Below are positions 1 to 30,899 of a stretch of DNA of 32,000 nt, piece by piece (the stretch's first letter is position 1; each line of letters begins with the position of its first letter). The notes under the pieces are model-generated. The model saw nothing but the letters and a program-made list of their open reading frames with translations. It ran no database searches and was not told where the DNA came from. The stretch lies in contig CP060262.1 of NCBI GenBank assembly GCA_022646745.1, forward strand, positions 720,001-752,000, given 5' to 3'. The DNA comes from Planctomycetales bacterium (GTDB lineage Bacteria > 4484-113 > JAFGCY01). The position numbers and the translations under genes were made by a program.

Positions 1-2592
1 CTCGCTGAATGCCAGTGCCCCGTCGGAGATGTCAATCGCCACAACACCATCCGCCGTACCATAGAACAGCAGGCTGCCACTGAGCACCAGTCCACTCGTT
101 GGCAGGGGATGGCTCTCCTGCCACACGTCCTGGCCCTGTTCATTGAGCCGATGCACCGTCCCGCTTTCCGTCACCACATAGGCCTGTGCATCATCATCTG
201 AAACTGGCACGGCAGCCGCCGCACTGTCAATTTCCTTGCTCCACAGCTCGGCCCCGGTGGCCTCAGTCAGGCAGAACACGCGGTGCGTGCCGCTCACCAG
301 GTTGCTGCCGTTGAGCAGCAGGCGGCGGAAGCTGAATGACGGTGCGCTGATTTCCTCATCGTCGTAGAATTCGTCCCAGGCAATGGACCCGTCGTCCTCG
401 AACATGGCAACGCCGCAGACGCCGGTGCCGCTGGAGGCGCTGCGCAGGCTCTCGGTCTTGCGCGTCGGCTCAAATACCGGAACATCGGTACGGAAGGTGA
501 TGCCGACGCGGCGGCGCTTCTGGGTCGGGCTGAGCGGAATCTCAGTCAGCACTGAGCTTGTCGCGCGGATGTCCGGGTCGTTGTCCAGCGGCCCGCCAAG
601 CGTCAGCTGCGGTTCGCCCGTCAGCTGCAGCTGGCCCTCCAGCCCGCTGAGCAGGCGGTCAAGCACGCTGGCATTGCCGGCCTGCATCGCGATGTTGAGC
701 CGGGACTCATTGAGCATCTGCCCGCGATCCACGAGGATCGTGCCGTCTGCGTTGTCAATCCCACCCAGCCGCGGCATGCTGATGAGGCTCAGCCGGCCAT
801 CGCTGCCGATCGCCGGGTTGAAATCGATGCGCACATCCTGCAGGCGCTCCATGTCAACGAGCGGGCTGGCCTTGAAGCGCTGTGTAAGGATGTTGTCAAA
901 GGAACGCACGCTGCCATCACCGAACAGTCCGGCGATGGTCGCCCCGCTGTCCAGCAGCTGGATCACCGGCTGGTCCACCGGCTGGCTGTCCGTTTCGCTG
1001 TTCGTTGCCGTGTCCCAGTCCACGATGCTCCATGAGCCGGAGTCATCATTGGCAACCAGCAGGCGGTCCTCCGTAGTGTCGGTGGTGAATGCGCCCCACA
1101 GTCCGCTGGCGGGCACGGCTGCCGCATCCATGCTGCCATCCGGCAGCCAGGACTGCAGGCTGGCACCATTCAGGTTGGCCCAGACACGGTCATCAGCACC
1201 CACGGCAAGCCGCGGATCGATGCCGCTGGAGCTCTGGATGCTCTGCGGGTTGAGCCCGGCGAAGTCCAGCGTGACGATAGAGTCGTCGGCCCCGTCCGTG
1301 CCCTTCAGCACCACGAACAGTCGCAGCCCGCTGGAGACGATGTTGCCCGGTGCCGGGGCGGCGAAATCATGCTCAAATGACTGCTGCACGCCGCTGCCGT
1401 TGATCAGGTGCAGGCCGAACACCAGGCCGCTGGCCGTCACGCCGGCGATGTTCTCCGTCGATGCATCCTTGAAGAAGGTGGCGGGGCGGGACAGCACGCG
1501 GCCGACGGCCTGCTGCTCCAGCACACTGCCTGTTGCATCAAGGAAGGTGTATCCGTTGTCATGCAGGGCCATCACGCCGAACTCGCCGCCGAAGTACTGC
1601 AGGTCGTTCACGCGCCAGCCGAGGTCCACGCTCCACAGCTCGCCACCGTTCTCATTGAGTTTCAATACGCGACCGTCGGTGGTGCCGAGGTAGTAGTTGT
1701 CATTTTCGTCGAAGGCCGGCGTGGTACTGTAGCCGAGGTTCAGTCCGCCGGTGTTGTACAGCACCTGTCCGTGGGTGCTGAAGTAGGTGTCACTCAGGCC
1801 GCTGTGCTGCGCGTCGCCACCGGCCATCGGCCAGCCGACGCTCTCTCCCGGCGGCTTGGTCTCATAACTGGCAATGCCCAGCTCGCGCACGCCGTTGGAT
1901 TCGAAATAGGGGCGGATGCCATAGGCATCGCCGGGGGCCAGGCTGTCCAGCTTGACCTCGAAGTAGACCTGCTTCGTCTCCGTCGGCAGGCTGATCGCGC
2001 TCGGCACCTTGGCCGTGATCGGCGTGCCCTCGCTGAAAAGCACTTCCGCCACCGGCTGGTAGCTGCCGAGGAACTGCGGTGTGGTGGTGTGCTCGACGAT
2101 GTAGCCGGTCACAGCGTTGCCGAAGTGCACGCCGATCGGGGTGATGTCAGCCAGGTTGACCTCGCCATTGCGGTCGCCGTCAGCCACTCCCTTGGTGAAC
2201 CAGCCGCTGCTGCCTTCAGTGGACTGGAATCCCACGCCGACGGGTGTCAGGTCGGAGATCGTCACCTGCCCGTTCAGGTCGTAGTCCCCGGTGTTCTGGT
2301 AATACCAGCCGACGAAGCTGCCGCCATCGCCGCTGTCCTCCGTGCCGATCTGGCTGACACGGTTGCCCAGCTCGCGCGGTGCCATGCTGACCTCACGGTC
2401 GCGTCCGGCTTCCACGCGCACCTGCTGCAGCTCATCCTGCATCTGTTGCCAGAGCGCACCATCCACGCCCTGCGGGACAGGCAGCGACTGCTGCTGCGGG
2501 TCAGGGCTGCTGGAGCCGCCGCCGCAGGAGGCGAACAGCAGGATGATGGCGGTGAGGCAGCCGCAGGCGGCCAGTCGACGCATCTGGATCAT
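1..2592 (-). CDS. Lipoprotein with two dockerin-like Ca-binding repeats followed by PQQ-like/BamB-like beta-propeller repeats. Only the N-terminal 864 codons are in the window; the ORF runs off the left edge.
   Basis: My own minus-strand translation (codons at 1-3, 4-6, ...) is open from 2592 to 1. It starts MIQMRRLAACGCLTAIILLFASCGGG (signal peptide plus lipobox FASC). Two repeats, GDYDLNGQVTISDLTPVG and DGDRNGEVNLADITPIG, look like dockerin/EF-hand repeats. Later come repeated propeller-type segments (GTTDGRVLKLNENGGELWSVDLG, ESGTVHRLNEQGQDVWQE, YGTADGVVAIDISDG). GGAG lies 7 nt upstream of ATG 2592. The ORF is absent from the track because it has no stop in the window. The + strand ORFs 383-1693 and 1408-2631 are its antisense shadows. 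Confidence 0.8.
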   Translation of the reverse strand, partial: MIQMRRLAACGCLTAIILLFASCGGGSSSPDPQQQSLPVPQGVDGALWQQMQDELQQVRVEAGRDREVSMAPRELGNRVSQIGTEDSGDGGSFVGWYYQNTGDYDLNGQVTISDLTPVGVGFQSTEGSSGWFTKGVADGDRNGEVNLADITPIGVHFGNAVTGYIVEHTTTPQFLGSYQPVAEVLFSEGTPITAKVPSAISLPTETKQVYFEVKLDSLAPGDAYGIRPYFESNGVRELGIASYETKPPGESVGWPMAGGDAQHSGLSDTYFSTHGQVLYNTGGLNLGYSTTPAFDENDNYYLGTTDGRVLKLNENGGELWSVDLGWRVNDLQYFGGEFGVMALHDNGYTFLDATGSVLEQQAVGRVLSRPATFFKDASTENIAGVTASGLVFGLHLINGSGVQQSFEHDFAAPAPGNIVSSGLRLFVVLKGTDGADDSIVTLDFAGLNPQSIQSSSGIDPRLAVGADDRVWANLNGASLQSWLPDGSMDAAAVPASGLWGAFTTDTTEDRLLVANDDSGSWSIVDWDTATNSETDSQPVDQPVIQLLDSGATIAGLFGDGSVRSFDNILTQRFKASPLVDMERLQDVRIDFNPAIGSDGRLSLISMPRLGGIDNADGTILVDRGQMLNESRLNIAMQAGNASVLDRLLSGLEGQLQLTGEPQLTLGGPLDNDPDIRATSSVLTEIPLSPTQKRRRVGITFRTDVPVFEPTRKTESLRSASSGTGVCGVAMFEDDGSIAWDEFYDDEEISAPSFSFRRLLLNGSNLVSGTHRVFCLTEATGAELWSKEIDSAAAAVPVSDDDAQAYVVTESGTVHRLNEQGQDVWQESHPLPTSGLVLSGSLLFYGTADGVVAIDISDGALAFSE

Positions 2593-4432: not shown

Positions 4433-5653
4433 ATGAAAACCAACCGCAGATTGAGCATCCTGCTCTTGGGCCTGCTGCTGGCGGGCCTCGGGGCCTGCCG
4501 TGAAAGTGAACCGGCGGGAGCTGCCGAGCAGTACACCGGCTTCGAGAACCAGAGCGCGCCGAAGAAGGCGCTGGTGGCCGGCCAGACCGACGACCCGCGC
4601 CTGCGGGACATCAAGTTGCCGCCTGGTTTCCATATTGAGCTGTATGCCGAGGATGTGACCAGTGCACGCTGCCTGAAGCTCAGCCCGGATGGCACGCTGT
4701 TCGTCGGCAGCCGCGGAACCGACCATGTGTTCGCATTGCGGGACACGGATGGAGACTTCGTCGCGGACGAGAAGTTCAGCATCGGCAGCGGGCTGCGCAT
4801 GCCCGTCGGTGTCGAGTTCCGCGACGGAGACCTGTACGTCGCCGAGGTCAGCAAGGTCTGGCGCTATGACGACATCGAGTCCCGCCTGGCCAGCCCGCCG
4901 GACCCGGTGCTGATCGAACGCTACCCCAGTGACGAGCACCATGGCTGGAAGTACATCCGCTTCGGCCCGGACGGCCGGCTCTATGTCCCGGTCGGCGCAC
5001 CCTGCAATGTCTGCACGCGGGACAACCCGATCTACGCCTCCATCACGAGCATCGCAGCCGGCGGCGGCAGCCGGCAGATCGTGGCACAGGGTGTGCGCAA
5101 CACGGTCGGCTTCGACTGGAACCCTGTCAACGGAGAGCTGTGGTTCACTGACAACGGGCGCGACATGCTCGGTGACAACATGCCGCCGGACGAGCTGAAC
5201 CGGATCCCGGCAGGCAGCGGCGTGGATGACGACGCACCGCACTTCGGCTTCCCGTTCTACCATGCCGGTGACATCAAGGACCCGGAGTTCAGTGAGGGCA
5301 AGGGCAAGGCTGACTACATCGCACCTATGCAGAAGCTCGGGCCGCATGTGGCGGGGCTTGGCGTGCGCTTCTACACCGGCAGGATGTTCCCGCAGGAGTA
5401 CCACAACCAGGTCTTCATCGCGGAGCATGGCAGCTGGAACCGCTCGAGCAAGATCGGATACCGGGTGATGCTTGTCAGGCTCGACAAGGACGGTAATGCC
5501 GCATCCTATGAGCCCTTCGCCGAGGGCTGGCTCGGCAATGACGACAAGGTCAGCGGGCGCCCGGTGGCGATCGAGTTACTGCCGGATGGCAGCATGCTGC
5601 TCAGCGACGATTATGCCAACTGCATCTACCGTATCAGCTACAAGGGATCATGA
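4433..5653 (+). CDS. PQQ-dependent sugar (glucose/sorbosone) dehydrogenase family beta-propeller lipoprotein
   Basis: Signal peptide with lipobox LGAC (MKTNRRLSILLLGLLLAGLGAC). NTVGFDWNPVNGELWFTDNGRDMLGDNMPPDELN and AEHGSWNRS are typical of the soluble YliI/sorbosone dehydrogenase family. Confidence 0.85.
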   Translation: MKTNRRLSILLLGLLLAGLGACRESEPAGAAEQYTGFENQSAPKKALVAGQTDDPRLRDIKLPPGFHIELYAEDVTSARCLKLSPDGTLFVGSRGTDHVFALRDTDGDFVADEKFSIGSGLRMPVGVEFRDGDLYVAEVSKVWRYDDIESRLASPPDPVLIERYPSDEHHGWKYIRFGPDGRLYVPVGAPCNVCTRDNPIYASITSIAAGGGSRQIVAQGVRNTVGFDWNPVNGELWFTDNGRDMLGDNMPPDELNRIPAGSGVDDDAPHFGFPFYHAGDIKDPEFSEGKGKADYIAPMQKLGPHVAGLGVRFYTGRMFPQEYHNQVFIAEHGSWNRSSKIGYRVMLVRLDKDGNAASYEPFAEGWLGNDDKVSGRPVAIELLPDGSMLLSDDYANCIYRISYKGS

Positions 5654-5805: not shown

Positions 5806-6489
5806 ATGTCAATCAACACCCTGCCGGACATCACCTCACTGTGGAAGCACAGCGACCCCGCAGCCAGCCAGGCTGCCTTCATGGAACTGATGCCAGGTGC
5901 CGAAACGGGCGGCAACATTTCCTTCAATGTCACCCTGCTCACCCAGGTTGCCCGGGCCCAGGGCCTGCAGCGCAACCATGAAGCTGCCAACGCCAGCCTG
6001 GACCGCGCCAAGCGCATGCTGGACGAAGGCAACCCGCAGGAACTGCAGCATGCACTGGTGAGCTACCTGCTGGAACGCGGCCGGGTCTACCGTGCCAGCG
6101 GTTATGAGGACCGTGCGGAGGACTACTTCCTGGAGGCCTATGAAATGGCCCTGGATGCCGAGGAAATTGCCATGGCAGTCGATGCCGCCCACATGCTGGG
6201 CCTGACACTGCAGGGTAAGGAATCGGTGGACTGGTTCAGCCGAGCCCTGAAGCATGCTTCCTCCGGCATCAATGCGCAGGTCCGTCGGTGGGAAGCCCCG
6301 CTGTGCGAACTGCTGGGCCGGATCTACGCCGAGGAAGGCCGCTCGGACGAGGCAAAGCGCTTGTTTGAGAGTGCGGTAATCCTGCGCAGCCGCCAGCCCG
6401 CACAAGCTCCCGAGAAGGAACTGCAGTGCAGCGGCGTGGCCTGTGCCTGCCCGGAAAGCGTCGCCGACGGCAGCCTGCTCGTGCCCTGA
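5806..6489 (+). CDS. TPR-like helical repeat protein without a signal peptide; paralog of the N-terminal half of the next gene
   Basis: GGAGAA lies 5 nt upstream of the ATG. TSLWKHSDPAASQAAFMELMPGAETGGN..LLTQVARAQGLQ..YLLERGRVY..FLEAYEMAL..DAAHMLG aligns by eye with residues of 6620-8104. Confidence 0.7.
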   Translation: MSINTLPDITSLWKHSDPAASQAAFMELMPGAETGGNISFNVTLLTQVARAQGLQRNHEAANASLDRAKRMLDEGNPQELQHALVSYLLERGRVYRASGYEDRAEDYFLEAYEMALDAEEIAMAVDAAHMLGLTLQGKESVDWFSRALKHASSGINAQVRRWEAPLCELLGRIYAEEGRSDEAKRLFESAVILRSRQPAQAPEKELQCSGVACACPESVADGSLLVP

Positions 6490-6510
6490 GCCTCCCTCAG
6501 CCGCATCATC

Positions 6511-6516
6511 TATAAT
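6511..6516 (+). promoter_or_regulatory. Candidate -10 box (TATAAT) upstream of the TPR-peroxiredoxin gene
   Basis: Perfect TATAAT in a GC-rich spacer, 104 nt upstream of ATG 6620. No convincing -35 box. Confidence 0.3.
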
Positions 6517-6619
6517 CCGCGCAGCGGCCGTTCAATCACGGGGGCCGTCCGGGCCAGCGCCTCTGCGGGGAAGCGCGCCGGCTGATTCCGGGCCAGATGG
6601 CCTTGAAGCGGAGAAGCTG

Positions 6620-8104
6620 ATGCATTGCCAACACCGGCTGCGGACATCACGGTCCCTGTTCAAGATCTGCCTGCTCAGCCTGCTGCTGTTCGCAGCAGTT
6701 GCCAGCCACTCGGCAGCCAATGCCCAGGCCGACATGAAAGCGGAGGACAAGATGGACAGCCACACCCAGCCTGACTTCACGACCCTGTGGGACTTCAATG
6801 ACGCTGCCGGCACCCGGGCGAAATTCGAGGAAATCCTGCCACTGGCCGAGACCAGCGGCAATGCTGCTTACCTCGCTGAACTACTGACACAGATCGCGCG
6901 TACATACGGTCTGCAGGGCAGCTTCGATGAGGCGCATGCCACGCTTGACCGGGTGGAGGGCATGCTCAGTGGCGACGGGATGGACAAGGCCCGCCTGCGC
7001 TACCTGCTGGAGCGCGGCCGTGCCTTCAATTCATCGAAGAAGCCGGAGCTGGCGCAGCCACTGTTCCTCGAAGCATACGAACTGGGTCTGACAACGGAAT
7101 TTGACGGCCTGACGATTGACGCGGCACACATGCTGGGGATCGTCACCAGCGGCGATGAATCACTGGAATGGAACCACAAGGCGCTGGAACTTGCTGAGAA
7201 AACCACTGATGAAAAGGCTGCCAACTGGAAGGGTGCCTTATACAACAACATGGGCTGGACCTACCTGGACAGCCATCGTCCCCAGGAAGCGCTTCATCTG
7301 TTCAAGAAAGGTGTCGATTTCCGCGAGGCGATGGGGCATGGCGAGCAGACCCGGATGATTGCGCACAGGACCGTGGCTCGCGCGCTCAGGGCACTCGGAC
7401 GCAATGACGAAGCGCTGGAGAAGCTCACGTACATCGCTGACAATTTCCCGGCCAGTGCCGAGGACGGCTTCTGGCATGAGGAACTGGGCGAGAATCTGCT
7501 GGCAACCGGTGATGCGGAAGGAGCCAAGGCTGCATTCACAACCGCTGTACCGATGCTGGAAGCGATGGGCTGGATTGCCACTGAATATCCGGGACGGATT
7601 GAACGCCTGCAGGCCATAATTGACACCGGCCTGCCGCTGCTGGAGATTGGCAGCCAGGCACCGGACTTCACCCTGCCCAACCAGGATGGCAAGGATGTCA
7701 GCCTGGCGGAGGTGCTGGCAAGCGGGCCGGTTGTGCTGGCGTTCTACAAGAAGGATGACACCGGTGGTTGAACGGCTGAGCTGGTTGAGTTCAACCGACT
7801 GAATGACGACTTTGACAAGCTTGGCGCAACGGTGGCGGGTATCAGCCCGGACAGCGTGGAGAGCCACGATTCATTCTGCAGTGCGCAGGGCTTTGGCTTT
7901 GACCTGCTGTCTGACGACGGCGGTACTGTCGGCAAGCAATACGGCACGTGGTCTGCGGAGGGCAGCCCGGGACGCGTAAGCTACGTGATCGGACAGGACG
8001 GCTATGTCGCTGGCTTCTTTGCCGGGGCACGTGACTTCGAGCAGCACAGCGCGGCAGCGCTGGAGATCCTCGGGAGAATGGCTGGCAAGGGTGGATCGGA
8101 GTGA
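6620..8104 (+). CDS. Secreted TPR-repeat / peroxiredoxin (Bcp/PrxQ-like, AhpC-TSA family) fusion protein with in-frame TGA (7769-7771) read as selenocysteine
   Basis: ATG 6620 has GGAG 6 nt upstream. Signal peptide MHCQHRLRTSRSLFKICLLSLLLFAAVASHSAANA-QA. The TPR part is paralogous to 5806-6489. It is followed by QAPDFTLPNQDGKDVSLAEVLASGPVVLAFYKKDDTGG-[TGA]-TAELVEFNRLNDDFDKLGATVAGISPDSVESHDSFCSAQGFGFDLLSDDGGTVGKQYG...RVSYVIGQDG. Track ORFs 6443-7771 and 7832-8104 are in the same frame and separated only by this TGA. Confidence 0.75.
7783..7796 (+). promoter_or_regulatory. Candidate bacterial SECIS apical hairpin (GGUUG-AGUU-CAACC) starting 11 nt after UGA 7769-7771
   Basis: 5-bp stem plus a U-G extension (7782/7797) and tetraloop AGUU. 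Same geometry and loop as the hairpin after the second TGA, with one compensatory pair change. Confidence 0.55.
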
Positions 8105-8817
8105 TCCAGATCCTGCAGCATCATGACTGCGAAGGGCCGGCCTATCTGGCAACGATGATGGCGGCGCGCGAGCTGGACTGGAAGGTGCTGCGCGCGGACC
8201 GCGGCGAGATCCCAAAGGACCTCAATGGCCTGGATGCGCTGGTCATCCTCGGCGGTCCGCAGAGTGTGAATCGCACCGACCTGTTTCCCTGGATGCGCCG
8301 TGAGATCGAGATCGTGCGCCTGGCGATTGATGCCGGCCTGCCTGTGCTCGGGATCTGCCTCGGGGCGCAGGTCGTGGCGACTGCCTGCGGGATGCAGGTT
8401 GTCAACTGCGACCACAAGGAGATCGGCTGGTTCCCGGTCAGGCGGCTGGCCAGCGGCAGCGAGGGCTGGTTCGCCGATGTGCCGGAGGAGTTCACATGCT
8501 TCCACTGGCATGGCGAGCGGATGATCCCGCATGAGGACATGCCGTCACTTGCCGCAACGGATGTGACGCCCTGCCAGGCATGCTCCCCGCTGCCGGGAGT
8601 GCTGGCCCTGCAGTTTCACCTCGAGGTGACGGAGGAAGCGATCCGGGCCATGGCCGCCGCATTCCATAAGGAAATGGCGGATGAGCTGATCGGGCTGGAC
8701 AGCCTGCTCTGGGAACTGCCGGAGCAGCTCGCCAACAGCCAGCGACTGGCGGATAATGTGATCGGCCGCTGGTTCGAGCGGGTGATGGCAAGAGATGCGT
8801 TTGGAGAAGCTGAATGA
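8101..8817 (+). CDS. Class I glutamine amidotransferase (GMP-synthase-like GATase1 domain protein)
   Basis: LPVLGICLGAQ (nucleophile Cys) and LQFHLE (His/Glu) motifs. The GTG start overlaps the stop of the upstream gene (GTGA). Its own stop overlaps the next ATG (ATGA), indicating translational coupling. Confidence 0.85.
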   Translation: MIQILQHHDCEGPAYLATMMAARELDWKVLRADRGEIPKDLNGLDALVILGGPQSVNRTDLFPWMRREIEIVRLAIDAGLPVLGICLGAQVVATACGMQVVNCDHKEIGWFPVRRLASGSEGWFADVPEEFTCFHWHGERMIPHEDMPSLAATDVTPCQACSPLPGVLALQFHLEVTEEAIRAMAAAFHKEMADELIGLDSLLWELPEQLANSQRLADNVIGRWFERVMARDAFGEAE

Positions 8818-9275
8818 AACTGCTTGAAGCGGGGAGCGCGGCTCCCGGATTCACGCTGCCCAACCAGCATGGCAGCAATGTCAGCCTGGCGGAGTTCCAG
8901 GGCAGCCAGCCGGTGGTGCTGATCTTCTACCCGAAGGATGCCACGGGGGGTTGAACGGCAGAATTGGCTGAGTTCAGCCGCCGCAAGGCCGAGTTCGATG
9001 AGCATGACGCAGTGCTGCTGGGGATCAGCGGTGACAGTGTGGAAAGTCACAAGGCATTTGCCGAGGACCAGTGCTACCCCTTCAACCTGCTGGCGGATAC
9101 CGACAATGCAGTCCGCAAGGCATACAAGGCGACGGATATCACCGGTCTGCTGCCGGCTCGCGTGACTTATGTAATTGGTCGCGAGGGGAAGATAGCAGGC
9201 TACTGCAACAGCGCGATCGACATGAAGCTGCATGCAGCGCGCGCGCTGGAGATCATCGAGGGTCTAGAGGTCTAA
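8814..9275 (+). CDS. Stand-alone Bcp/PrxQ-like peroxiredoxin with in-frame TGA (8952-8954) read as selenocysteine, 153 codons
   Basis: MKLLEAGSAAPGFTLPNQHGSNVSLAEFQGSQPVVLIFYPKDATGG-[TGA]-TAELAEFSRRKAEFDEHDAVLLGISGDSVESHKAFAEDQCYPFNLLADTDNAVRKAYK...RVTYVIGREGKI. The track shows only the C-terminal part (8964-9275). The N-terminal 46 codons are in the same frame. Confidence 0.8.
8966..8979 (+). promoter_or_regulatory. Candidate bacterial SECIS apical hairpin (GGCUG-AGUU-CAGCC) starting 11 nt after UGA 8952-8954
   Basis: Same offset, stem length and AGUU loop as 7783-7796. The third stem pair is C-G here and U-A there. Confidence 0.55.
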
Positions 9276-11184: not shown

Positions 11185-11216
11185 AAGGCCAGCCTGCGGG
11201 CTGGCCTTTTTGTTTT
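11185..11216 (+). terminator. Rho-independent terminator of the WD40 gene
   Basis: AAGGCCAGCC-tgcg-GGCTGGCCTT followed by TTTTGTTTT. Confidence 0.8.
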
Positions 11217-11288
11217 GCCATCTCACGCAAGCGTTCGATGGACTCTGGTTGCGCACTGGACCGGAAAGCAAGTTCCCGGATCCAGTGC
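11216..11288 (+). other. Structured repeat motif, copy B (hairpin H1 11218-11241, hairpin H2 11253-11288)
   Basis: H1 is CCATC-tc-ACGC-aa-GCGT-tc-GATGG. H2 is GCACTGG...CCAGTGC. It is homologous to 30762-30834 with compensatory substitutions in both helices. It starts directly after a terminator T-tract. Confidence 0.5.
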
Positions 11289-11808: not shown

Positions 11809-13743
11809 ATGGGTGATTCAGTAGCAACAAAGATCCTCAAGCAGCATCTCGTCGACGGCGAGATCGCCCCCGGCAATGAGATCGGGATCCGCATCGACCA
11901 GACCCTGCACCAGGACGCCACCGGCACGATGGTGATGCTGGAGCTGGAGGCTATGGGCCTCGATCGCGTGAAGACGGAACTGTCCGTCACCTACGTGGAC
12001 CACAACATGCTGCAAAGCGACTTCCGCAATGCGGATGACCACCGCTACCTGCAAAGCGTGGCCCAGAAGCTCGGCATCCACTACAGCCGTCCCGGCAACG
12101 GGATCTGCCACCAGGTGCACCTTGAGCGCTTCGGCGCACCGGGCCGCACCCTGCTCGGTTCCGACTCGCACACCCCGACCGGCGGCGGACTCGGCATGAT
12201 CTCGATCGGCGCCGGCGGACTGGACGTGGCGGTGGCGGCTGGCGGCGGGGCCTACTACCTGCCCTGCCCGAAGATCATAGGCGTGCGCCTGACAGGCAAG
12301 CTGCAGCCCTGGGTGGCCAGCAAGGACATCATCCTCGAAATGCTGCGCCGCCTGACCGTGAAGGGCGGCTTCGGAAAGATCTTCGAATACCACGGCCCGG
12401 GCATCGAATGCCTGGACGTTCCGGCTCGCAGCACCGTCTGCAACATGGGTGCGGAGCTCGGCGCCACCACCAGCCTGTTCCCGAGTGACTGGCAAACGAA
12501 GAAGTACCTCGAGGCGATGGGCCGCGGTGAGGTCTGGCAGGAACTGATGCCGGACGCCGACGCCGAGTATGACGAACTGATCGAGATCAACCTCGACGAA
12601 CTGGAGCCGCTGATCGCCAAGCCGAGCAACCCGGACCTCGTGGTCCCGGTGCGTGAGGTGGCCGGCACCAAGCTGCACCAGGTCTGCGTCGGCAGCTGCA
12701 CCAACTCGAGCTACCACGACCTGGCAATTTGCGCCAATGTGCTGAAGGACAACATCGTCGCTGACAACGTCAGCATGACGCTCACCCCCGGCAGCCGCAA
12801 CGTATTCAACGAAATCGCCGCCAACGGCATGCTGGCGGACATCATCGCGGCCGGCGCGCGCATCCTCGAAAGCGCATGCGGGCCCTGCATCGGCATGGGC
12901 CAGGCCCCGCCGAGCCAGGGCGTGAGCCTGCGCACCTTCAACCGCAACTTCCTCGGCCGCAGCGGCACGAAGGACGCCTACGTCTACCTCTGCAGCCCGG
13001 AGGTGGCGGCCGTCAGCGCGCTGCGCGGCGAGATCACCGACCCGCGCGACTGGGGCGAGTACCCGGCGGTCGAGATGCCGGAGCAGTACCTCGTTGACGA
13101 CCGGATGATCATCGACCCGCCGGCGGATGCCAGCGCGGTCGTGGTTGAGCGTGGTCCGAACATCGTGCCGCTGGAGGACTTCACGGCCACCCCGGACGGG
13201 ATCGAGGCTGAGGTGATCCTCAAGACCGCTGACAACATCTCCACTGACCACATCATGCCGGCCGGTGCCAAGGTGCTGCCCTACCGCTCGAACATCCCCG
13301 AGATCAGCAAGTTCACCTTCGGCGTGGTTGACAGCGAGTTCCACGACCGCGCGATGGCCATGAAGGAAAACGGCGGCAGCATCATCATCGGTGGCAGCAA
13401 CTACGGCCAGGGCTCGTCGCGCGAGCATGCGGCGATCGCCCCGCGCTACCTCGGCGTGAAGGCCGTGATCGTGAAGGACTTCGCCCGCATCCACTGGAAC
13501 AACCTGATCAACTTCGGCATCGTGCCGCTGCAGTTCGCCGATCCGGCGGACTATGACAGCGTGGCCCAGGGCGACCGGCTCGCGATCCGCGACCTGCACA
13601 GCCAGATCCGCAATGGCAGCGAGGTCAGGGTTGACAACCTGACGAAGGGCACGAGCTTCACCGCCACACATTCGCTCAGCGGACGCCAGGTGCATGTGCT
13701 GCTGGCCGGCGGGCTGATCAACACCGTGAAGGAAGCGAGCTAG
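11809..13743 (+). CDS. Aconitase-family hydratase, ~645-aa 'Aquifex-type' architecture, with a full set of Fe-S ligand cysteines
   Basis: Carries GICHQVHLE, GSDSHT, NMGAELGAT, VGSCTNSSYHD, ACGPCIGMGQ, RTFNRNFLGRSG and GQGSSREHAA. AGGAGA lies 6 nt upstream of the ATG. Confidence 0.9.
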   Translation: MGDSVATKILKQHLVDGEIAPGNEIGIRIDQTLHQDATGTMVMLELEAMGLDRVKTELSVTYVDHNMLQSDFRNADDHRYLQSVAQKLGIHYSRPGNGICHQVHLERFGAPGRTLLGSDSHTPTGGGLGMISIGAGGLDVAVAAGGGAYYLPCPKIIGVRLTGKLQPWVASKDIILEMLRRLTVKGGFGKIFEYHGPGIECLDVPARSTVCNMGAELGATTSLFPSDWQTKKYLEAMGRGEVWQELMPDADAEYDELIEINLDELEPLIAKPSNPDLVVPVREVAGTKLHQVCVGSCTNSSYHDLAICANVLKDNIVADNVSMTLTPGSRNVFNEIAANGMLADIIAAGARILESACGPCIGMGQAPPSQGVSLRTFNRNFLGRSGTKDAYVYLCSPEVAAVSALRGEITDPRDWGEYPAVEMPEQYLVDDRMIIDPPADASAVVVERGPNIVPLEDFTATPDGIEAEVILKTADNISTDHIMPAGAKVLPYRSNIPEISKFTFGVVDSEFHDRAMAMKENGGSIIIGGSNYGQGSSREHAAIAPRYLGVKAVIVKDFARIHWNNLINFGIVPLQFADPADYDSVAQGDRLAIRDLHSQIRNGSEVRVDNLTKGTSFTATHSLSGRQVHVLLAGGLINTVKEAS

Positions 13744-13796
13744 GAGGCCAGGCAGATTGCCTGGCATTTGCCAAGCTTTCAGCTTGGCCTCCACAA

Positions 13797-13891
13797 GCAA
13801 TGAAGAATGAGTGATGAGCAATGAGCCTAAGTCAGGCAGAGGTCACCTCGCTGCTGGCGATGCTCATTGCTCACTCTTCATTGCTCATTGC
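13797..13891. repeat. Imperfect 30-nt inverted repeat built from GAGCAATGA-like units (arms 13797-13826 and 13862-13891)
   Basis: The arms are GCAATGAAGAATGAGTGATGAGCAATGAGC and GCTCATTGCTCACTCTTCATTGCTCATTGC, with 24/30 complementary positions. The inner 12 bp are perfect and the loop is 35 nt. Same architecture as 18677-18755. Confidence 0.7.
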
Positions 13892-13895
13892 TGTC

Positions 13896-13918
13896 CGGCG
13901 GCTGGGAGCCGCCGCTAC
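13896..13918 (+). repeat. REP-like hairpin CGGCGGC-tggga-GCCGCCG-CTAC
   Basis: 7-bp GC stem and 5-nt loop. Member of a family seen 6-7 times between 13.9 and 18.8 kb. Confidence 0.7.
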
Positions 13919-13962
13919 GGCTTCTATAATGACCACTCACAACGACCAGGGAGAAGAGTGAT

Positions 13963-15909
13963 ATGGGACTGACAGTTGCCCAGAAGATACTGAAGGAGCA
14001 TCTCGTCGAGGGCGAGATGGTGATCGGCCAGGAAATCGGCATCCGGATTGACCAGTGCCTGCAGCAGGACGCCACTGGCACCATGGTGATGCTGGAGCTG
14101 GAGGCGATGGGCCTGCCGCAGGTGAAGACCGATGTCAGCGTGCAGTATGTCGACCACAACCTCGTGCAGAACGACTACAAGAACGCCGACGACCACCTGT
14201 TCCTGCTGAGCGCCGCGCAGCGCTTCGGCCACTGGTATAGCCGCCCCGGCAACGGCATCAGCCACCCGGTGCACTACGAGCGCTTCGGCAAGCCCGGTGC
14301 CACGATGCTCGGCTCGGACAGCCATACCCCGGCTGCCGGCGGCATGGGCATGATCGCAATCGGTGCCGGCGGCATTGACGTGGCGATGGCCAACGCGGGC
14401 GAGCCCTTCTTCTTCAAGATGCCGAAGATCTGGGGCGTGAAGCTAACCGGCGAGCTGCCTGACTGGGTGTCCAGCAAGGACATCATCCTCGAGATGCTGC
14501 GCCGCCACGACGTGAAGGGCGGGCTGGGCTGCATCATCGAATACTACGGCCCCGGCGTTGACCAGCTCAGTGCAATGGACCGCCACGTGATCTGCAACAT
14601 GGGAGCGGAGCTCGGTGCCACCACCAGCCTGTTCGCCAGTGACGGCGTCACGAAGGAATTCCTGCGCCAGATGGGCCGCGAGGGCGACTGGAAGGAACTG
14701 CTGCCGGATGCCGATGCGAAGTATGACCGCGAGGAGCATATCGAGCTCAGTGAGCTGGAGCCGCTGATCGCCATGCCGACATCCCCGGGCAACGTTAAGA
14801 AGGTCAGCGAGGTCGCCGGCGAGAAGATCTACCAGAGCTACATCGGCAGCAGTGCCAACCCGGAGTACCGCGCGCTCGCAATGGCCAGTGAGGTTGTCAA
14901 GGAGCGCAGCGTGGCTCCCCACGTTTCCTTCGATGTCAACCCGGCCAGCCGCCAGATCCTTGAGAACATCGTCTACGACGGCTACATGACCGCCCTGATC
15001 CACAGCGGCGCGCGCATCCACCAGGCCGGCTGCAACGGCTGCATCGGCATGGGCCAGGCCCCGGCCACGCATGAGATCAGCGTGCGCACCGTGCCGCGCA
15101 ACTTCCCCGGCCGCAGTGGCACGAAGGAGGACAAGGTCTGCCTCGTCAGCCCGGAGACCGCCGTTGCCAGCGCCGTGACCGGTGTGATCACCGACCCGCG
15201 CACGCTCGGCATGCCCTACCCGAAGATCAAGGACCCCGAGAACCCGCGCCTGAACACCGAGCAGCTGCTGGCGCCGCTGCCGCTGGAGGAAGCGCTGAAG
15301 GTCGAGCTGCGCAAGGGCCCGAACGTCAAGAGCCTGCCGCTGTTTGATGAGGTGCCTGACACAATCGAGGTCAAGGTGCTGCTGAAGGTCGGTGACAACA
15401 TCACCACTGACCACATCTCACCGGCCGGCAGCCGCGTGCTGCCCTTCCGCTCGAACATCCCCGCGATCGCCGAGTTCAGCTATGAGCTGATCGACCCGGA
15501 CTACCCGAAGAACGCACTGGCAATCAAGGAGCAGGGCGGGCATGCGATCGTCGGCGGCTTCAACTACGGCCAGGGTTCATCGCGCGAGCATGCCGCCTTG
15601 GCCCCGCGCTACCTCGGCCTGCGCCTCGTGCTGGTGAAGGACTTCGCCCGCATCCACTGGCAGAACCTGATCAACTTCGGCATCCTGCCGCTGCAGTTTG
15701 ACAACGAGGCGGACTATGACGCGCTGGACAACGGCGACGTGCTTCGCATCGAGAACCTGCACCAGCAGGTGACCGACGGGCCGGAGGTGACGGTACGCAA
15801 CATGACCAGGGGCACGGACATCCCGGCGCACCATACGCTCTCGCAGCGCCAGATGGAAGTGCTGCTTAAGGGTGGCCTGATCAACTGGGTCAAGGCGAAG
15901 CATCAGTAG
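13963..15909 (+). CDS. Aconitase-family paralog lacking the first Fe-S ligand cysteine (GSSAN instead of GSCTN)
   Basis: Collinear with 11809-13743 (GSDSHT, NMGAELGAT, GCNGCIGMGQ, RTVPRNFPGRSG, GQGSSREHAA). The differences are IGSSANPEY at the position of VGSCTNSSY and GISHPVHYE at GICHQVHLE. GGGAGAAG lies upstream of the ATG. Confidence 0.9.
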   Translation: MGLTVAQKILKEHLVEGEMVIGQEIGIRIDQCLQQDATGTMVMLELEAMGLPQVKTDVSVQYVDHNLVQNDYKNADDHLFLLSAAQRFGHWYSRPGNGISHPVHYERFGKPGATMLGSDSHTPAAGGMGMIAIGAGGIDVAMANAGEPFFFKMPKIWGVKLTGELPDWVSSKDIILEMLRRHDVKGGLGCIIEYYGPGVDQLSAMDRHVICNMGAELGATTSLFASDGVTKEFLRQMGREGDWKELLPDADAKYDREEHIELSELEPLIAMPTSPGNVKKVSEVAGEKIYQSYIGSSANPEYRALAMASEVVKERSVAPHVSFDVNPASRQILENIVYDGYMTALIHSGARIHQAGCNGCIGMGQAPATHEISVRTVPRNFPGRSGTKEDKVCLVSPETAVASAVTGVITDPRTLGMPYPKIKDPENPRLNTEQLLAPLPLEEALKVELRKGPNVKSLPLFDEVPDTIEVKVLLKVGDNITTDHISPAGSRVLPFRSNIPAIAEFSYELIDPDYPKNALAIKEQGGHAIVGGFNYGQGSSREHAALAPRYLGLRLVLVKDFARIHWQNLINFGILPLQFDNEADYDALDNGDVLRIENLHQQVTDGPEVTVRNMTRGTDIPAHHTLSQRQMEVLLKGGLINWVKAKHQ

Positions 15910-15928
15910 CGGCGGCTTCCAGCCGCCG
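15906..15928 (-). repeat. REP-like hairpin in reverse orientation (GTAG-CGGCGGC-ttcca-GCCGCCG), overlapping the TAG stop of the aconitase paralog
   Basis: Exact reverse complement of the 17031-17053 copy. The stop codon 15907-15909 lies inside the GTAG tail. Confidence 0.7.
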
Positions 15929-15983
15929 ACAAGTTTGGCGGTTGGAGTGTGGAGGTTGGAGGTGCGGCGCAAGTCGCACAACC

Positions 15984-16985: not shown

Positions 16986-17029
16986 AGGATTTGGGAGCTT
17001 GGGTGTAGGGTGTAGCGGAAGGGATCAGG
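16986..17029 (+). repeat. Right direct repeat flanking the low-GC gene
   Basis: See 16088-16123. It contains an internal GGGTGTAG duplication. Confidence 0.65.
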
Positions 17030-17030
17030 T

Positions 17031-17053
17031 CGGCGGCTGGAAGCCGCCGCTAC
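17031..17053 (+). repeat. REP-like hairpin CGGCGGC-tggaa-GCCGCCG-CTAC
   Basis: Consensus copy of the family. Confidence 0.7.
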
Positions 17054-17175
17054 GGGTCATTGTTCACAAAGATTGTGCGATAGCAAGTGTCACAGATCCG
17101 TTGCCAGACTATCGTCTGGCCGCCGACGACTTGCTTGTGCCAGGCCTCCGCCCCTCCTGCACCTTCCACGCGACC

Positions 17176-17202: not shown

Positions 17203-18651
17203 TCAGACCGCCGAGTCCTTGGACGAGGCGGCAGATCGCTTCGGTACATACATATCCGTCACCGTGCCGAGGAAGACCTCTGCAGCGAAGCCGACTGATT
17301 CAGCGAGCGTCGGATGCGCGTGGATCGTCTCCGCGATGTCCTCCGCATGCGCCCCCATCTCGATTGCCAGCGCCGCCTCCGCGATCAGGTCGCCCGCGCC
17401 GACGCCGACGATGCTGCAGCCGAGGATGCGGCCTGTGGCGTTGTCAAACACCATCTTTGTCAGGCCCTCCATGCGGTCCAGCGCGATCGCCTTGCCGCTG
17501 GCCGCCCAGGGGAACTTGCCGACGCCGTAGTCGATACCCTGTTCCTTCGCCTCCTCCTCCGTCAGGCCGGCCCAGGCCAGCTCCGGGTCGGTGAACACCA
17601 CGGCCGGGATGCAGCGCTTGTCCCAGACGGAGTGGTGCCCGGCGATCACCTCGGCGGCGACGCGGCCCTCGTGGCTGGCCTTGTGCGCCAGCATCGGCTG
17701 CCCGGCGATGTCACCGATGGCGAAGATATGCGGCACGTTGGTGCGCATCTGATTGTCAATTCTGATGAACCCGCCCTCGCCGACTTCCACGCCGGCCATC
17801 TCGATGGCGAGCATGTCACTGTTGCTGCGGCGGCCGATGCTGACGAGCACCCGGCCATACTCACCGCTGAACGCACCCTCGCTGCCCTCGAAGTCCACCT
17901 TGACCGACTTGCCGGTGTCCTTGATGCCGGTGACCTTCGTTGACAGCATGATCCTGCCGAACTGGCCCTTCAGGCGCTTCTCCAGCGGGCGCACCGCGTC
18001 GCGGTCGGCCCCGCTGAGGATGTGGTCCTGCAGCTCCACCACGTCAACCTTGCTGCCCAGTGCGGCATACACGCTGCCGAGCTCCAGGCCGATGTAGCCA
18101 CCGCCGATCACCAGCAGGCTGTCCGGGATCTCCTCGATCTCGAGCGCCGTCGTGCTGTCCAGCACCTTGTCGCTGCCAATCTCGAGGAAGGGTAGGCGCA
18201 GGATGCGGCTGCCGGCGGCGATGATGCAGTGCCTGAATTCAATCGTATCGCCACTCTTCTTCAGCGTGACGGAATTCGGCGATGCGAACTCGGCGTAGTC
18301 GGAGATGAACTCGCAGCCACGCTGCTTCGCCATGCCCTTCAGGCCGCCGGTCAGGCGGTTTACCACGCTGTCCTTGAACTGGCGCAGCTTGAGCTTGTCA
18401 ATCTGCGGACTGCCGTAGCTAACACCATGCTTTTCCAGCTCAGCGGCTTCAGTGATGTGCGCCGCGATGTGCAGGTAGGCCTTGCTCGGGATGCAGCCCA
18501 CGCGCAGGCAGACGCCGCCGGGGACCTCGTTTTCGTCCACGAGGATGGTATTCACACCGAGGTCGGCGGCGCGGAAGGCAGCGGTATAGCCGCCGGGCCC
18601 GGCTCCGATCACGAGTAACTCACAGGTCTTTGTTGCCATGTCTGTTTCCAT
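17203..18651 (-). CDS. lpdA: Dihydrolipoyl dehydrogenase (E3 of the pyruvate dehydrogenase complex)
   Basis: ELLVIGAGPGGYTAAFRAADLG, the redox-active GGVCLRVGCIPSK, and the C-terminal HAHPTLAE interface motif. The start is ATG 18651 (METDMATK) or ATG 18639 (MATK). The track start at 18687 is a TTG inside a repeat. Confidence 0.93.
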   Translation of the reverse strand: METDMATKTCELLVIGAGPGGYTAAFRAADLGVNTILVDENEVPGGVCLRVGCIPSKAYLHIAAHITEAAELEKHGVSYGSPQIDKLKLRQFKDSVVNRLTGGLKGMAKQRGCEFISDYAEFASPNSVTLKKSGDTIEFRHCIIAAGSRILRLPFLEIGSDKVLDSTTALEIEEIPDSLLVIGGGYIGLELGSVYAALGSKVDVVELQDHILSGADRDAVRPLEKRLKGQFGRIMLSTKVTGIKDTGKSVKVDFEGSEGAFSGEYGRVLVSIGRRSNSDMLAIEMAGVEVGEGGFIRIDNQMRTNVPHIFAIGDIAGQPMLAHKASHEGRVAAEVIAGHHSVWDKRCIPAVVFTDPELAWAGLTEEEAKEQGIDYGVGKFPWAASGKAIALDRMEGLTKMVFDNATGRILGCSIVGVGAGDLIAEAALAIEMGAHAEDIAETIHAHPTLAESVGFAAEVFLGTVTDMYVPKRSAASSKDSAV

Positions 18652-18784
18652 AGCGGCGGCATCCTGCCGCCGGTTGGTGATGAGCAATGAAGAATGAGCA
18701 ATGAGTCAGACATATGCTTCGATAGTCTCATTGCTCATTGCTCATAACTCATTGCTTCAGTCAGCGGCTGGAAGCCGCCGCTAC
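18651..18784. repeat. ~134-bp composite palindromic element in the aceF-lpdA spacer: REP (reverse) 18651-18672, GAGCAATGA-type inverted repeat 18677-18705/18727-18755, REP (forward) 18762-18784
   Basis: Left end TAGCGGCGGC-atcct-GCCGCCG; right end CAGCGGC-tggaa-GCCGCCGCTAC. The inner stem AATGAGCAATGAG/CTCATTGCTCATT is 13 bp and perfect, with a 21-nt loop. The element fills almost the whole spacer between the aceF stop (18787) and the lpdA start. Confidence 0.7.
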
Positions 18785-18786
18785 CG

Positions 18787-23184: not shown

Positions 23185-24285
23185 TCAGTGCTCGAAACCG
23201 CTGGCCTGCAGCACTCGGTTGCGGCCCAGTTCATCGGTGTACATCAAGCCCTCATCGGCGGGCAGCACCGTGCCGATCCTCGTAAGCGGGACGGGTGATT
23301 CGCGCAGCAGGCGGGCTGTGGATGAGACCGGTGCCGTGAACAGCAGCTGGTAGTCCTCCGCGCTGCCCAGCAGGAACTCACTGAGGCTTGCGAACTCGCG
23401 GGCCTTGCGGTCCGTGCTCATGCGCCCGGGAATCCCGAATGCCGCGGGACCGTTGCCGTTGCTGCCATGTTTCGCCACGCTGCGGCGCTGCCGGGCGAAC
23501 TCCTGCAATTCACCGCTGAAATCGTAGTTCTGCAGGTCAATCTGCATGCCGACGCCGGATGCATCGGCAAGCTGCAGCAGGCACTGCGACAGGCTGTCGG
23601 AAAGGTCCATGCAGGCACTGGCCAGTTCCTCACTGGACAGCCATTGCCCAAGTGCAAGCTGGGGCTTGGGCCTGACATGCGCCTCGCGGGCCAGCACACT
23701 GCCGTCCTCGACACCAGCCTGCAGCTGGTGGAAACCAAGCTGGCTGAGGCCAAGCTCGCCACTGTGCCAGATCGCGTCACCGGGCTTTGCTCCACTGCGG
23801 GTGAGCGGCTGGCTGGCGATGCTGCCGATCATGCTGAAGCTGAGCAGCCACTGCGGGGCACGCACCGTGTCACCACCGATCAGGTCAGCGCCGAATTCCT
23901 TAAGCGCTTCGCCGACGCCGTCCAGCAGCTGGCTGACTTCGGTGTTTTCCGCATCGCGCGGTACCCCGAGGTTTCCCAGCGCATAGACGCATTCCGCGCC
24001 CATCGCCGCCATGTCACTCACGTTGACGGAGACCGCCTTGTAGCCGATCTCGGCCAGGTCCATGTAACGGCGGGAGAAGTGCACGCCTTCCACGAGGATG
24101 TCGGTGGCCAGCACCTGGCTGCAGACGTTGAGCCTGCGGCCCCCGTTCTGCCCCTCCGGCGGCCCGATCACGGCGGCGTCATCACCGAGGCCGACCAGCA
24201 GCCGGTTGTTCGTGCAGCTGAAGCGGCGCCTGATCTGGCTGATGATGCCTTCCTCGTTTACCTGTGCCTCACTCACGCTGCTCAA
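23185..24285 (-). CDS. thiL: Thiamine-monophosphate kinase (PurM/AIR-synthase-related superfamily)
   Basis: GLGDDAAVI, ATDILVEGVHF, NVSDMAAMGA and GSAEDYQLLFTA match the ThiL pattern. TTG start with GAAGG upstream. It is about 40 aa longer than typical ThiL proteins. Confidence 0.8.
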   Translation of the reverse strand: MSSVSEAQVNEEGIISQIRRRFSCTNNRLLVGLGDDAAVIGPPEGQNGGRRLNVCSQVLATDILVEGVHFSRRYMDLAEIGYKAVSVNVSDMAAMGAECVYALGNLGVPRDAENTEVSQLLDGVGEALKEFGADLIGGDTVRAPQWLLSFSMIGSIASQPLTRSGAKPGDAIWHSGELGLSQLGFHQLQAGVEDGSVLAREAHVRPKPQLALGQWLSSEELASACMDLSDSLSQCLLQLADASGVGMQIDLQNYDFSGELQEFARQRRSVAKHGSNGNGPAAFGIPGRMSTDRKAREFASLSEFLLGSAEDYQLLFTAPVSSTARLLRESPVPLTRIGTVLPADEGLMYTDELGRNRVLQASGFEH

Positions 24286-24387
24286 TTGCGCCTTCCCCGG
24301 GAATCCGTAATTACTTGCATTGCATCTTACCCCGAAACCTACTATCGGTCAGAAATCGCCGGAAATTACTCTGTTTCCTATAATTGG

Positions 24388-30761: not shown

Positions 30762-30834
30762 TGCCGTCTCGTGCGAGCACTCGACGGTCTTAGGATGCGC
30801 AGTGGCTCAGGACAGTTCGTCCTTCGTCCACTGC
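30762..30834 (+). other. Structured repeat motif, copy A1 (H1 30764-30787, H2 30799-30834)
   Basis: H1 is CCGTC-tc-GTGC-ga-GCAC-tc-GACGG. H2 is GCAGTGG...CCACTGC. Homologous to 11216-11288. It starts directly after a terminator T-tract. Confidence 0.5.
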
Positions 30835-30862: not shown

Positions 30863-30899
30863 TGCCGTCTCACGCAAGCGCTCGGCGGTCTTGGGATGT
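30863..30899 (+). other. Structured repeat motif, partial copy A2 (H1 only, 30865-30888)
   Basis: CCGTC-tc-ACGC-aa-GCGC-tc-GGCGG followed by TCTTGGGATG, the same flank as A1 (TCTTAGGATG) and B (ACTCTGGTTG). Confidence 0.45.

Follow-up and report, generated by a model that had tools for sequence, protein, structure and literature searches.

Paralogous PrxQ-type peroxiredoxin genes with in-frame UGA codons, probably read as selenocysteine, in an uncultured UBP7/Planctomycetales-labelled lineage

The locus and its two interrupted genes

A 32,000-nt stretch of the Planctomycetales bacterium assembly GCA_022646745.1 (contig CP060262.1, positions 720,001 to 752,000; hereafter the window, whose own coordinates are used throughout) carries two paralogous genes for PrxQ/BCP-type peroxiredoxins (Prx), each of them interrupted by an in-frame TGA at the codon for the peroxidatic residue. 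From comparison of their sequences, we consider it highly probable that both genes encode selenocysteine (Sec) at this position by way of the UGA. The longer gene, tpr-prxQ or copy 1, would specify a secretory-type precursor in which tetratricopeptide repeats (TPR) precede the peroxiredoxin domain, whereas copy 2 is a stand-alone peroxiredoxin gene, and the pair brackets a gene for a class I glutamine amidotransferase (GATase). The genes and their protein features are as follows.

6620-8104, + strand: copy 1, tpr-prxQ, a 494-residue precursor with putative signal peptide, TPR domain and PrxQ/BCP peroxiredoxin domain, Sec predicted at residue 384
6620-6730, + strand: putative Sec-type (secretory) signal peptide of copy 1, MHCQHRLRTSRSLFKICLLSLLLFAAVASHSAANA/QA, read from the sequence
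7646-8101, + strand: peroxiredoxin domain of copy 1 (AhpC/TSA, PrxQ/BCP-type), Pfam match at residues 343-463
7769-7771, + strand: UGA probably read as Sec384, at the peroxidatic position of a TxxU motif, placed by alignment with the Cys of homologues
7877-7879, + strand: Cys420 (Sec+36), probable resolving cysteine, aligned with a Cys of Xanthomonas campestris BCP
8101-8817, + strand: GATase gene (NCBIfam PRK07053, E 1.1e-41, below cut-off)
8814-9275, + strand: copy 2, a PrxQ-type gene standing alone and predicted to encode a selenoprotein of 153 aa, with Sec47 at TGA 8952-8954

A first-pass annotation, made from the letters alone, had described copy 1 as two open reading frames (ORFs; 6443-7771 and 7832-8104) lying in one frame and parted by TGA 7769-7771 only, with homology that goes on for another 110 codons, and had read the TGA as selenocysteine; translation and homology searches bear out the frame and the homology, and alignment, conservation, purifying selection, a standard genetic code and a hairpin resembling a selenocysteine insertion sequence (SECIS) all support the Sec reading. 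The read-through translation runs ...VVLAFYKKDDTGG, the TGA and then TAELVEFNRL..., followed by 110 codons to TGA 8102-8104 (the stretch before the TGA is also given as ...GPVVLAFYKKDDTGG, again with TAELVEFNRL... after it). With the stop replaced by Cys, Pfam returns several TPR matches (TPR_12, E 3.3e-16) and, in the alignment that the first-pass annotation had suggested as a check, a single AhpC-TSA match (PF00578) that spans the TGA and covers positions 1-121 of the 124 in the profile (E 2.7e-34; 118.2 bits against a gathering cut-off of 26). Both fragments also match PF00578 separately in public gene calls. The start is likely ATG 6620, which has GGAG six bases upstream and is the Met used by the NCBI gene call for the protein ending at the TGA (P0121; 383 aa, 100% identity).

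The product of copy 1 is likely exported, judging from an N terminus that by inspection combines a basic n-region, a hydrophobic core and an AxA-like ANA/QA site, and from the comparable hydrophobic N terminus found in all retrieved homologues in which this end is intact (P0122, P0123, P0125, P0126 and P0127). Its TPR part spans about 300 residues. Stand-alone TPR homologues without a Prx domain (about 290-350 aa; P0127-P0240) are common in Planctomycetota and Chloroflexota, and among the matches listed the TPR-Prx fusion is confined to the small clade of copy 1. A gene for an Fe/Mn superoxide dismutase lies 3 kb upstream on the opposite strand, which fits an oxidative-stress neighbourhood.

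The label "first copy" in the first-pass annotation implied a second, and copy 2 is that gene: 54% identical to copy 1, without a signal peptide, and reading FYPKDATGG before its TGA and TAELAEF after it. The GATase gene shares bases with its neighbours at both ends, its start codon with the copy-1 stop (GTGA) and its stop codon with the copy-2 start (ATGA), and we therefore treat the three genes as one operon. The order tpr-prxQ, GATase, prxQ recurs on seven related contigs (L003, L006, L007 and L171-L174); L008, from Planctomycetales Ww346, lacks the GATase gene and has copy 2 directly after copy 1. Unrelated metagenome contigs likewise carry paired TGA-type PrxQ genes at a distance of about 450 nt (L104, at 504 and 957; L112, at 3124 and 3577; L132, at 3130 and 3583; L139, at 486 and 936), so that tandem pairs of predicted Sec-peroxiredoxins appear to recur in other lineages.

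The TGA codon and the catalytic site

The stop falls on the catalytic cysteine, as the first-pass annotation had claimed, in alignments with close and distant homologues alike. The TGA of copy 1 is aligned with Cys in P0001, P0005-7, P0016, P0122 and P0123, and with the peroxidatic cysteine (CP) of Xanthomonas campestris BCP (XcBCP); among these, P0001, the Cys orthologue of copy 2, is a 72% identical homologue (FYPKDATSGCTLEL), and P0122 and P0123, the close homologues for copy 1, are full-length, at 494 aa each. At least eight diverged relatives retain the TGA, which in independently collected samples is present in copy-1 orthologues on L008, L177, L178 and L179 and in copy-2 orthologues on L001-L008, L166 and L167. 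TGC stands in its place in both copies of the metagenome-assembled genome (MAG) AC1.30 (L009; proteins P0001 and P0123) and in copy 1 of UBP7 HKST-UBA01 (L006, JAGRNR010000069.1) and UBP7 HKST-UBA03 (L007). Farther afield, about 25 additional TGA-type PrxQ forms were found in Rhodospirillales MAGs and Joint Genome Institute (JGI) metagenomes; the JGI scan returned many distant TGA-type PrxQ genes and no close relatives, the highest identity being 47%.

Both window proteins find their best NCBIfam matches in Bcp (PRK09437) and PrxQ, and their closest solved structures in XcBCP (5iox and 3gkk, E 2.5e-19). Their scores lie below the equivalog cut-offs of Bcp (NF006960; 84 and 79 against 140), of Deinococcus PrxQ (NF053650; 80 and 67.5 against 260) and of PrxU (NF040737; 48.9 and 50.5 bits against 270), and they are therefore relatives of these equivalogs and not members. 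Both copies carry T-G-G-U, with the motif Pro kept in copy 2 (FYPKDATGGU), and the active-site Arg (PGRVxYVI region; R116 of A1) is invariant in an alignment of the two copies with their orthologues and the Cys homologue.

How might the oxidized selenium be resolved? In this subfamily a resolving Cys is expected either at CP+5 (CxxxxC) or in helix alpha-3, at about CP+36, as in XcBCP. In copy 1, SHDSFCSAQGF aligns with SHDNFCAKQGF of XcBCP, whose Cys we take to be the resolving Cys84 (CR). The corresponding Cys420 is conserved among copy-1 orthologues, and the residue at +5 from Sec is Val. On this alignment copy 1 would act as an atypical 2-Cys-type PrxQ, with a selenenylsulfide forming between Sec384 and Cys420. 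In its Sec forms (window, L001, L005, L007 and L008), copy 2 has no Cys at either +5 or +36, whereas the Cys orthologue P0001 keeps the one at +36. Lacking a resolving Cys, copy 2 would be a 1-Sec enzyme or would use another thiol, and the comparison suggests that a change of resolving mechanism accompanied the use of Sec in this copy.

Purifying selection acts on the 106-110 codons that follow the TGA. In seven orthologue pairs, compared over 98-110 downstream codons and with synonymous divergence (dS) near saturation except in the closest pair, copy 1 (window versus L008) has a ratio of nonsynonymous to synonymous rates (dN/dS) of 0.125 and copy 2 (window versus orthologues) one of 0.08-0.24, from which we conclude that these codons are translated. 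The genetic code is otherwise standard: among the 20 listed ORFs 9 end in TGA, or 9 of the 18 real genes once two spurious + strand ORFs without family matches (383-1693 and 1408-2631) are dropped, and UGA is therefore unreassigned. The genes so ended include those for GATase, lpdA, aceF and a purine-nucleoside phosphorylase (PNP), with some stops overlapping the next start codon, and the three TGAs that the first-pass annotation had taken for genuine stops (5651-5653, 8102-8104 and 8815-8817) each do end a gene. No other gene in the window holds an in-frame TGA beyond the two catalytic positions, and a scan of TGA-interrupted ORFs in the non-genic parts of the window gave no convincing additional selenoprotein.

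Downstream hairpins and Sec/Cys alleles

Shortly after each TGA lies a compact hairpin (hairpin C) that is a candidate SECIS, and in copy 1 a longer alternative overlaps it.

7782-7797, + strand: candidate SECIS of copy 1 (hairpin C), U-GGUUG-[AGUU]-CAACC-G, core stem 11 nt and loop 16 nt after the UGA
8965-8980, + strand: candidate SECIS of copy 2 (hairpin C), U-GGCUG-[AGUU]-CAGCC-G, starting 11 nt after the UGA
7766-7796, + strand: hairpin A, the longer alternative, GGUUGAAC...GUUCAACC, RNAalifold consensus, with the UGA in its 5' arm

An alignment of 10 non-identical Sec-type sequences, spanning the TGA with 6 nt on its 5' side and 44 nt on its 3' side, reveals three hairpins (A, B and C) that compete for one 3' arm, GUUCARCC. 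Hairpin C, with the consensus U-GGYUG-[AGUU]-CARCC-G, is paired in 100% of cells in the 10 Sec sequences and shows a compensatory double change, being U-A in window copy 1, L008 and L177 and C-G elsewhere, including the TPR-fused L178. Its energy ranges from -6.0 to -8.7 kcal/mol in Sec forms, against -2.2 to +2.2 kcal/mol in four Cys alleles folded in the same register. In the window, the hairpin of copy 1 has -5.3 kcal/mol isolated and -6.3 in context, and that of copy 2 has -7.7 isolated and -8.4 in context. A 6-bp hairpin capped by an xGUx tetraloop, at -6 kcal/mol or lower, is found at 15 of 63,968 window positions (2.3e-4), and the copy-2 hairpin is among them. The published model of bacterial SECIS elements (bSECIS) has a loop of 3-9 nt with G as its first or second nucleotide, an upper stem of 4-16 bp, a distance of 16-37 nt from UGA to loop and a minimum free energy (MFE) of -7.5 kcal/mol or lower (PMC13188914); both copies fall within it in loop (AGUU), stem (5 bp plus a U.G pair) and spacing (16 nt), and copy 2 also in energy.

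Hairpin A (GGUUGAAC/GUUCARCC) is 97.5% paired, has no compensatory change and reaches -10.9 kcal/mol. It and the mini-hairpin are mutually exclusive; if hairpin A has a role, it would presumably be melted when the UGA occupies the A site, so that its 3' arm is freed for hairpin C. Two other candidates were rejected. Hairpin B (GCNGARY/GUUCARC, from 3 nt after the UGA) loses its third pair, at an Ala wobble position that is U, A, G or C, and lies too near the UGA to survive ribosome occupancy, while a long fold specific to the window is unconserved in L008 or L177.

The minimal SECIS of Escherichia coli fdhF, known from work by Liu et al. 1998 and Huttenhofer et al. 1996, is reportedly a 17-nt upper hairpin located 11 nt from the UGA and is said to carry GU in its apical loop. 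Hairpin C resembles it in the 11-nt spacer and in the small apical loop with G-U at positions 2-3, but has a shorter stem (5-6 bp) and no evident bulged U. The UGA can pair in a longer structure of the unperturbed mRNA in both systems; in the window, unlike in fdhF, this UGA-containing hairpin competes with the mini-hairpin and does not extend it.

A broader comparison of 36 TGA-type and 116 Cys-type PrxQ loci points the same way. Model-compliant hairpins are stronger at the Sec loci (Mann-Whitney p 1.8e-5), and hairpins of -7.5 kcal/mol or lower occur at 28% of Sec but 4% of Cys loci, whereas a simple MFE over the 57 nt that follow the codon distinguishes Sec and Cys forms only weakly (-14.9 versus -12.9 kcal/mol, p 0.026). 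Other Sec-PrxQ subfamilies have conserved hairpins of their own 13-15 nt downstream, for example GCUCGCUC-CGGGAY-GAGnCGAGC and GGGUUC-CGUGAUC-GAAUCC, from which the AGUU tetraloop on a 5-6 bp stem seen here is distinct.

The Cys allele of HKST-UBA01 indicates how Sec and Cys forms may be interchanged between close relatives. Around the copy-1 gene (window 6500-8100), the flanks of the two genomes are 95-100% identical in DNA. The gene itself is mostly 57-88% identical, at 67-88% over the greater part of its length, with short stretches at 95-97%, and about 60% identical from just before the catalytic codon, TGC in HKST-UBA01, to the gene end. At the protein level, the N-terminal part of the HKST-UBA01 product is 86% identical to the window and 62% to the Cys alleles of the more distant genomes HKST-UBA03 and AC1.30, whereas the segment after CP is 55% identical to the window (110 residues) and 82-84% to those same Cys alleles. 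These opposed affinities make the HKST-UBA01 allele a mosaic, and by this comparison recombination with a breakpoint near the catalytic codon appears to have swapped a segment holding Sec and SECIS for a Cys segment, or the reverse.

Decoding, alternatives and known selenoproteins

We propose that, when a ribosome reaches UGA 7769-7771, SelB carrying Sec-tRNA(Sec) would bind GGUUG-AGUU-CAACC 11 nt downstream and insert Sec384, after which translation of 110 more codons would complete the thioredoxin-fold peroxidase domain. The copy-1 selenolate would then reduce peroxides and become a selenenic acid, which Cys420 may resolve as a selenenylsulfide that a thioredoxin-like partner would reduce again; copy 2 (Sec47) would be either a 1-Sec enzyme or dependent on some other thiol.

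Could one gene yield two products? We speculate that copy 1 might be selenium-gated, giving a secreted, TPR-tethered selenoperoxidase when Sec-tRNA is present and, through termination at the UGA, a TPR-only protein resembling the many stand-alone homologues when selenium is scarce, that hairpins 7766-7796 and 7782-7797 might be mutually exclusive conformers that set the ratio, and that strains might toggle between Sec and Cys by recombining the catalytic codon together with the SECIS segment, as the window and HKST-UBA01 would illustrate. Taken as a whole, this set of proposals is unlikely to be right; if true, an exported TPR-fused Sec-peroxiredoxin without the motif Pro would be new in architecture and might also act on a new class of substrate.

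Several observations weigh against the insertion of Sec, which we nevertheless favour. None of selA, selB, selC and selD was seen in the 32-kb window, in L006-L009 or in L171 (GCA_020440665.1, contig JAGRNS010000031.1). Rfam at gathering thresholds and ARAGORN gave no matches on the window, and no tRNAs were found in L006-L009, although this absence of tRNA and Rfam matches is uninformative because sel genes need not be nearby. At -5.3 kcal/mol isolated or -6.3 in context, the copy-1 hairpin is weaker than the bSECIS energy threshold of -7.5. The covariation comes down to one base pair and one or two evolutionary events, and the covarying changes also change amino acids (Val/Asn versus Ala/Ser). 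RNAalifold favours the competing hairpin A, which contains the UGA, and the Cys alleles on L007 and L009 form another nearby hairpin (GGCGG...CCGCC), an indication that hairpins easily arise in GC-rich coding sequence. Finally, copy 1 has Lys for the conserved Pro of PxxxTxxC/U (FYKKDDTGGU; window 7745-7771); the same Lys occurs in the copy-1 Sec alleles of L008 (about 1806-1832) and L177, and copy-1 Cys alleles keep FYPKDHTGGC.

That no sel genes were seen would also fit read-through of another kind, in which a suppressor or near-cognate tRNA inserts Cys, Trp or Gly or in which UGA has been reassigned throughout the lineage, and translation is not known to have been studied in the uncultured candidate phylum of the host (UBP7, or "Planctomycetales bacterium" by another label). 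Reassignment is at odds with the TGAs that stop half of the real genes (9/18) at the expected protein ends, some of them overlapping the next start, and the in-frame TGAs found in genes are confined to the two catalytic positions. A hairpin at SECIS distance that is lost in Cys alleles is, moreover, predicted by Sec decoding and not by non-specific suppression, and we accordingly give these explanations very little credence.

A true stop is less credible still. In that case the exported TPR product would end after 383 aa in a non-functional Prx stub, the downstream 110 codons being a decaying remnant or separately initiated, and public annotation does agree with this division, listing P0121 as "tetratricopeptide repeat protein" beside 90-107-aa "AhpC-TSA" fragments, as does the commonness of stand-alone TPR homologues of about 290-350 aa. 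Yet the downstream codons of copy 1 have a dN/dS of 0.125, with no frameshift or extra stop, among orthologues with saturated synonymous sites; the break falls exactly at the catalytic residue in two paralogues and at least eight lineages; and a Prx fold cut at the active-site helix would fail as two chains. That sequencing or assembly instead produced the TGA from a true TGC or TGT is effectively refuted: the close relative HKST-UBA01 does have TGC at the copy-1 position, but its allele is no point variant, being 55% identical over the following 110 residues, and an identical TGA-truncated product is carried by 14 contigs (NCBI, ENA and Logan) that come from different samples and assemblers, one of them 4.11 Mb long, with identical DNA around the TGA in all three assemblies inspected (L171-L173) and the same TGA in the paralogue and many orthologues.

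Elsewhere in the window, two aconitate hydratase paralogues lie in tandem (11809-13743 and 13963-15909; PRK07229 type, 644 and 648 aa), with long stretches in which about 70-79% of their nucleotides are identical. Repeated intergenic palindromes occur at 13795-13925, 15906-15930, 17029-17055 and 18648-18786; a GC-rich hairpin (CGGCGGCTGGRAGCCGCCGCTACGG) lies downstream of several window genes, and an inverted repeat of about 100 nt (ATGAGCAATGA type) is present both in the intergenic region that separates the aconitase genes and in that from lpdA to aceF. This inverted repeat could be terminator-like or resemble repetitive extragenic palindromic (REP) or miniature inverted-repeat transposable (MITE) elements. 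A 36-nt repeat (TGCCRTCTCRYGCRAGC...) at 11216-11251, 30762-30797 and 30863-30898 occupies two intergenic regions of the window and is tandemly multiplied in MAG AC1.30 (L009 14178-14704). For the - strand of window positions 1-2592, the matching public contig has a PQQ beta-propeller protein of 979 aa (L171 3034-5973). In the 585-aa ORF at 23467-25224, the purine-nucleoside phosphorylase domain covers residues 319-583 only and the N-terminal 320 or so residues have no NCBIfam match, and the ORF is either a fusion or called from too early a start codon.

Neither the residue class nor the enzyme family nor the decoding mechanism is new, in keeping with the remark in the first-pass annotation that Sec forms exist in the AhpC/TSA family. 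Sec-containing COG1225/PF00578 peroxiredoxins with TxxU have been known since 2005, from the Sargasso Sea (PMC1088965) and later selenoproteome surveys (PMC5029168, PMC13188914); by 2016 they had been recorded in 78 sequenced bacteria (PMC5029168), and a 2026 review treats them as an established family with the motif PxxxTxxU and describes Prx selenoprotein genes as clustering in operons (PMC13188914). The window genes share with this family a PrxQ/BCP-type AhpC/TSA domain, the UGA in T-x-x-U, a SECIS hairpin (here a candidate one) just downstream and widespread Cys homologues. Copy 1 departs from its usual members in its putative signal peptide, its fusion to about 300 residues of TPR and its Lys for the Pro of PxxxTxxU; the locus, in having two Sec-type paralogues around a GATase gene; and the host, in being a UBP7/Planctomycetales-labelled lineage, also present in other metagenome assemblies, and not marine proteobacteria. 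XcBCP (3gkk, 5iox and 5iiz) likewise has CP at the UGA position and a Cys at that of Cys420, but is a cytoplasmic single-domain protein that uses Cys and not Sec and keeps the motif Pro. PrxU of Peptoclostridium (Eubacterium) acidaminophilum (NF040737) also has Sec at the peroxidatic position but belongs to a different Prx subfamily. Literature on UBP7 together with selenocysteine, and on exported bacterial Sec-peroxiredoxins, yielded nothing specific. Particular to this locus are the signal-peptide/TPR fusion, the change of Pro to Lys in copy-1 Sec alleles, the two predicted Sec paralogues around GATase, the compact AGUU-tetraloop SECIS candidate and the strain-level Sec/Cys mosaic; the fusion, the loss of the motif Pro and the allele swap are mildly new.

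In conclusion, current understanding is not overturned, since Sec-PrxQ is among the commonest bacterial selenoprotein families, but the finding corrects a systematic mis-annotation. GenBank splits copy 1 (UNM09005.1/MCB1221700.1, "TPR repeat protein") and copy 2 (UNM09008.1/MCB1221704.1, "redoxin domain-containing protein"), leaving in public records a 383-aa "tetratricopeptide repeat protein" and AhpC-TSA pieces of 46 aa and 90-107 aa, and as a result two antioxidant enzymes are missing from the inventory of this genome. If confirmed, our reading would establish a Sec-decoding trait in an uncultured UBP7/Planctomycetales-labelled lineage and would add an exported, TPR-fused architecture to the Sec-Prx family. 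Moreover, alleles that sit in 95-100% identical backgrounds, with the SECIS candidate present or absent accordingly, offer a natural comparison for the interconversion of Sec and Cys.

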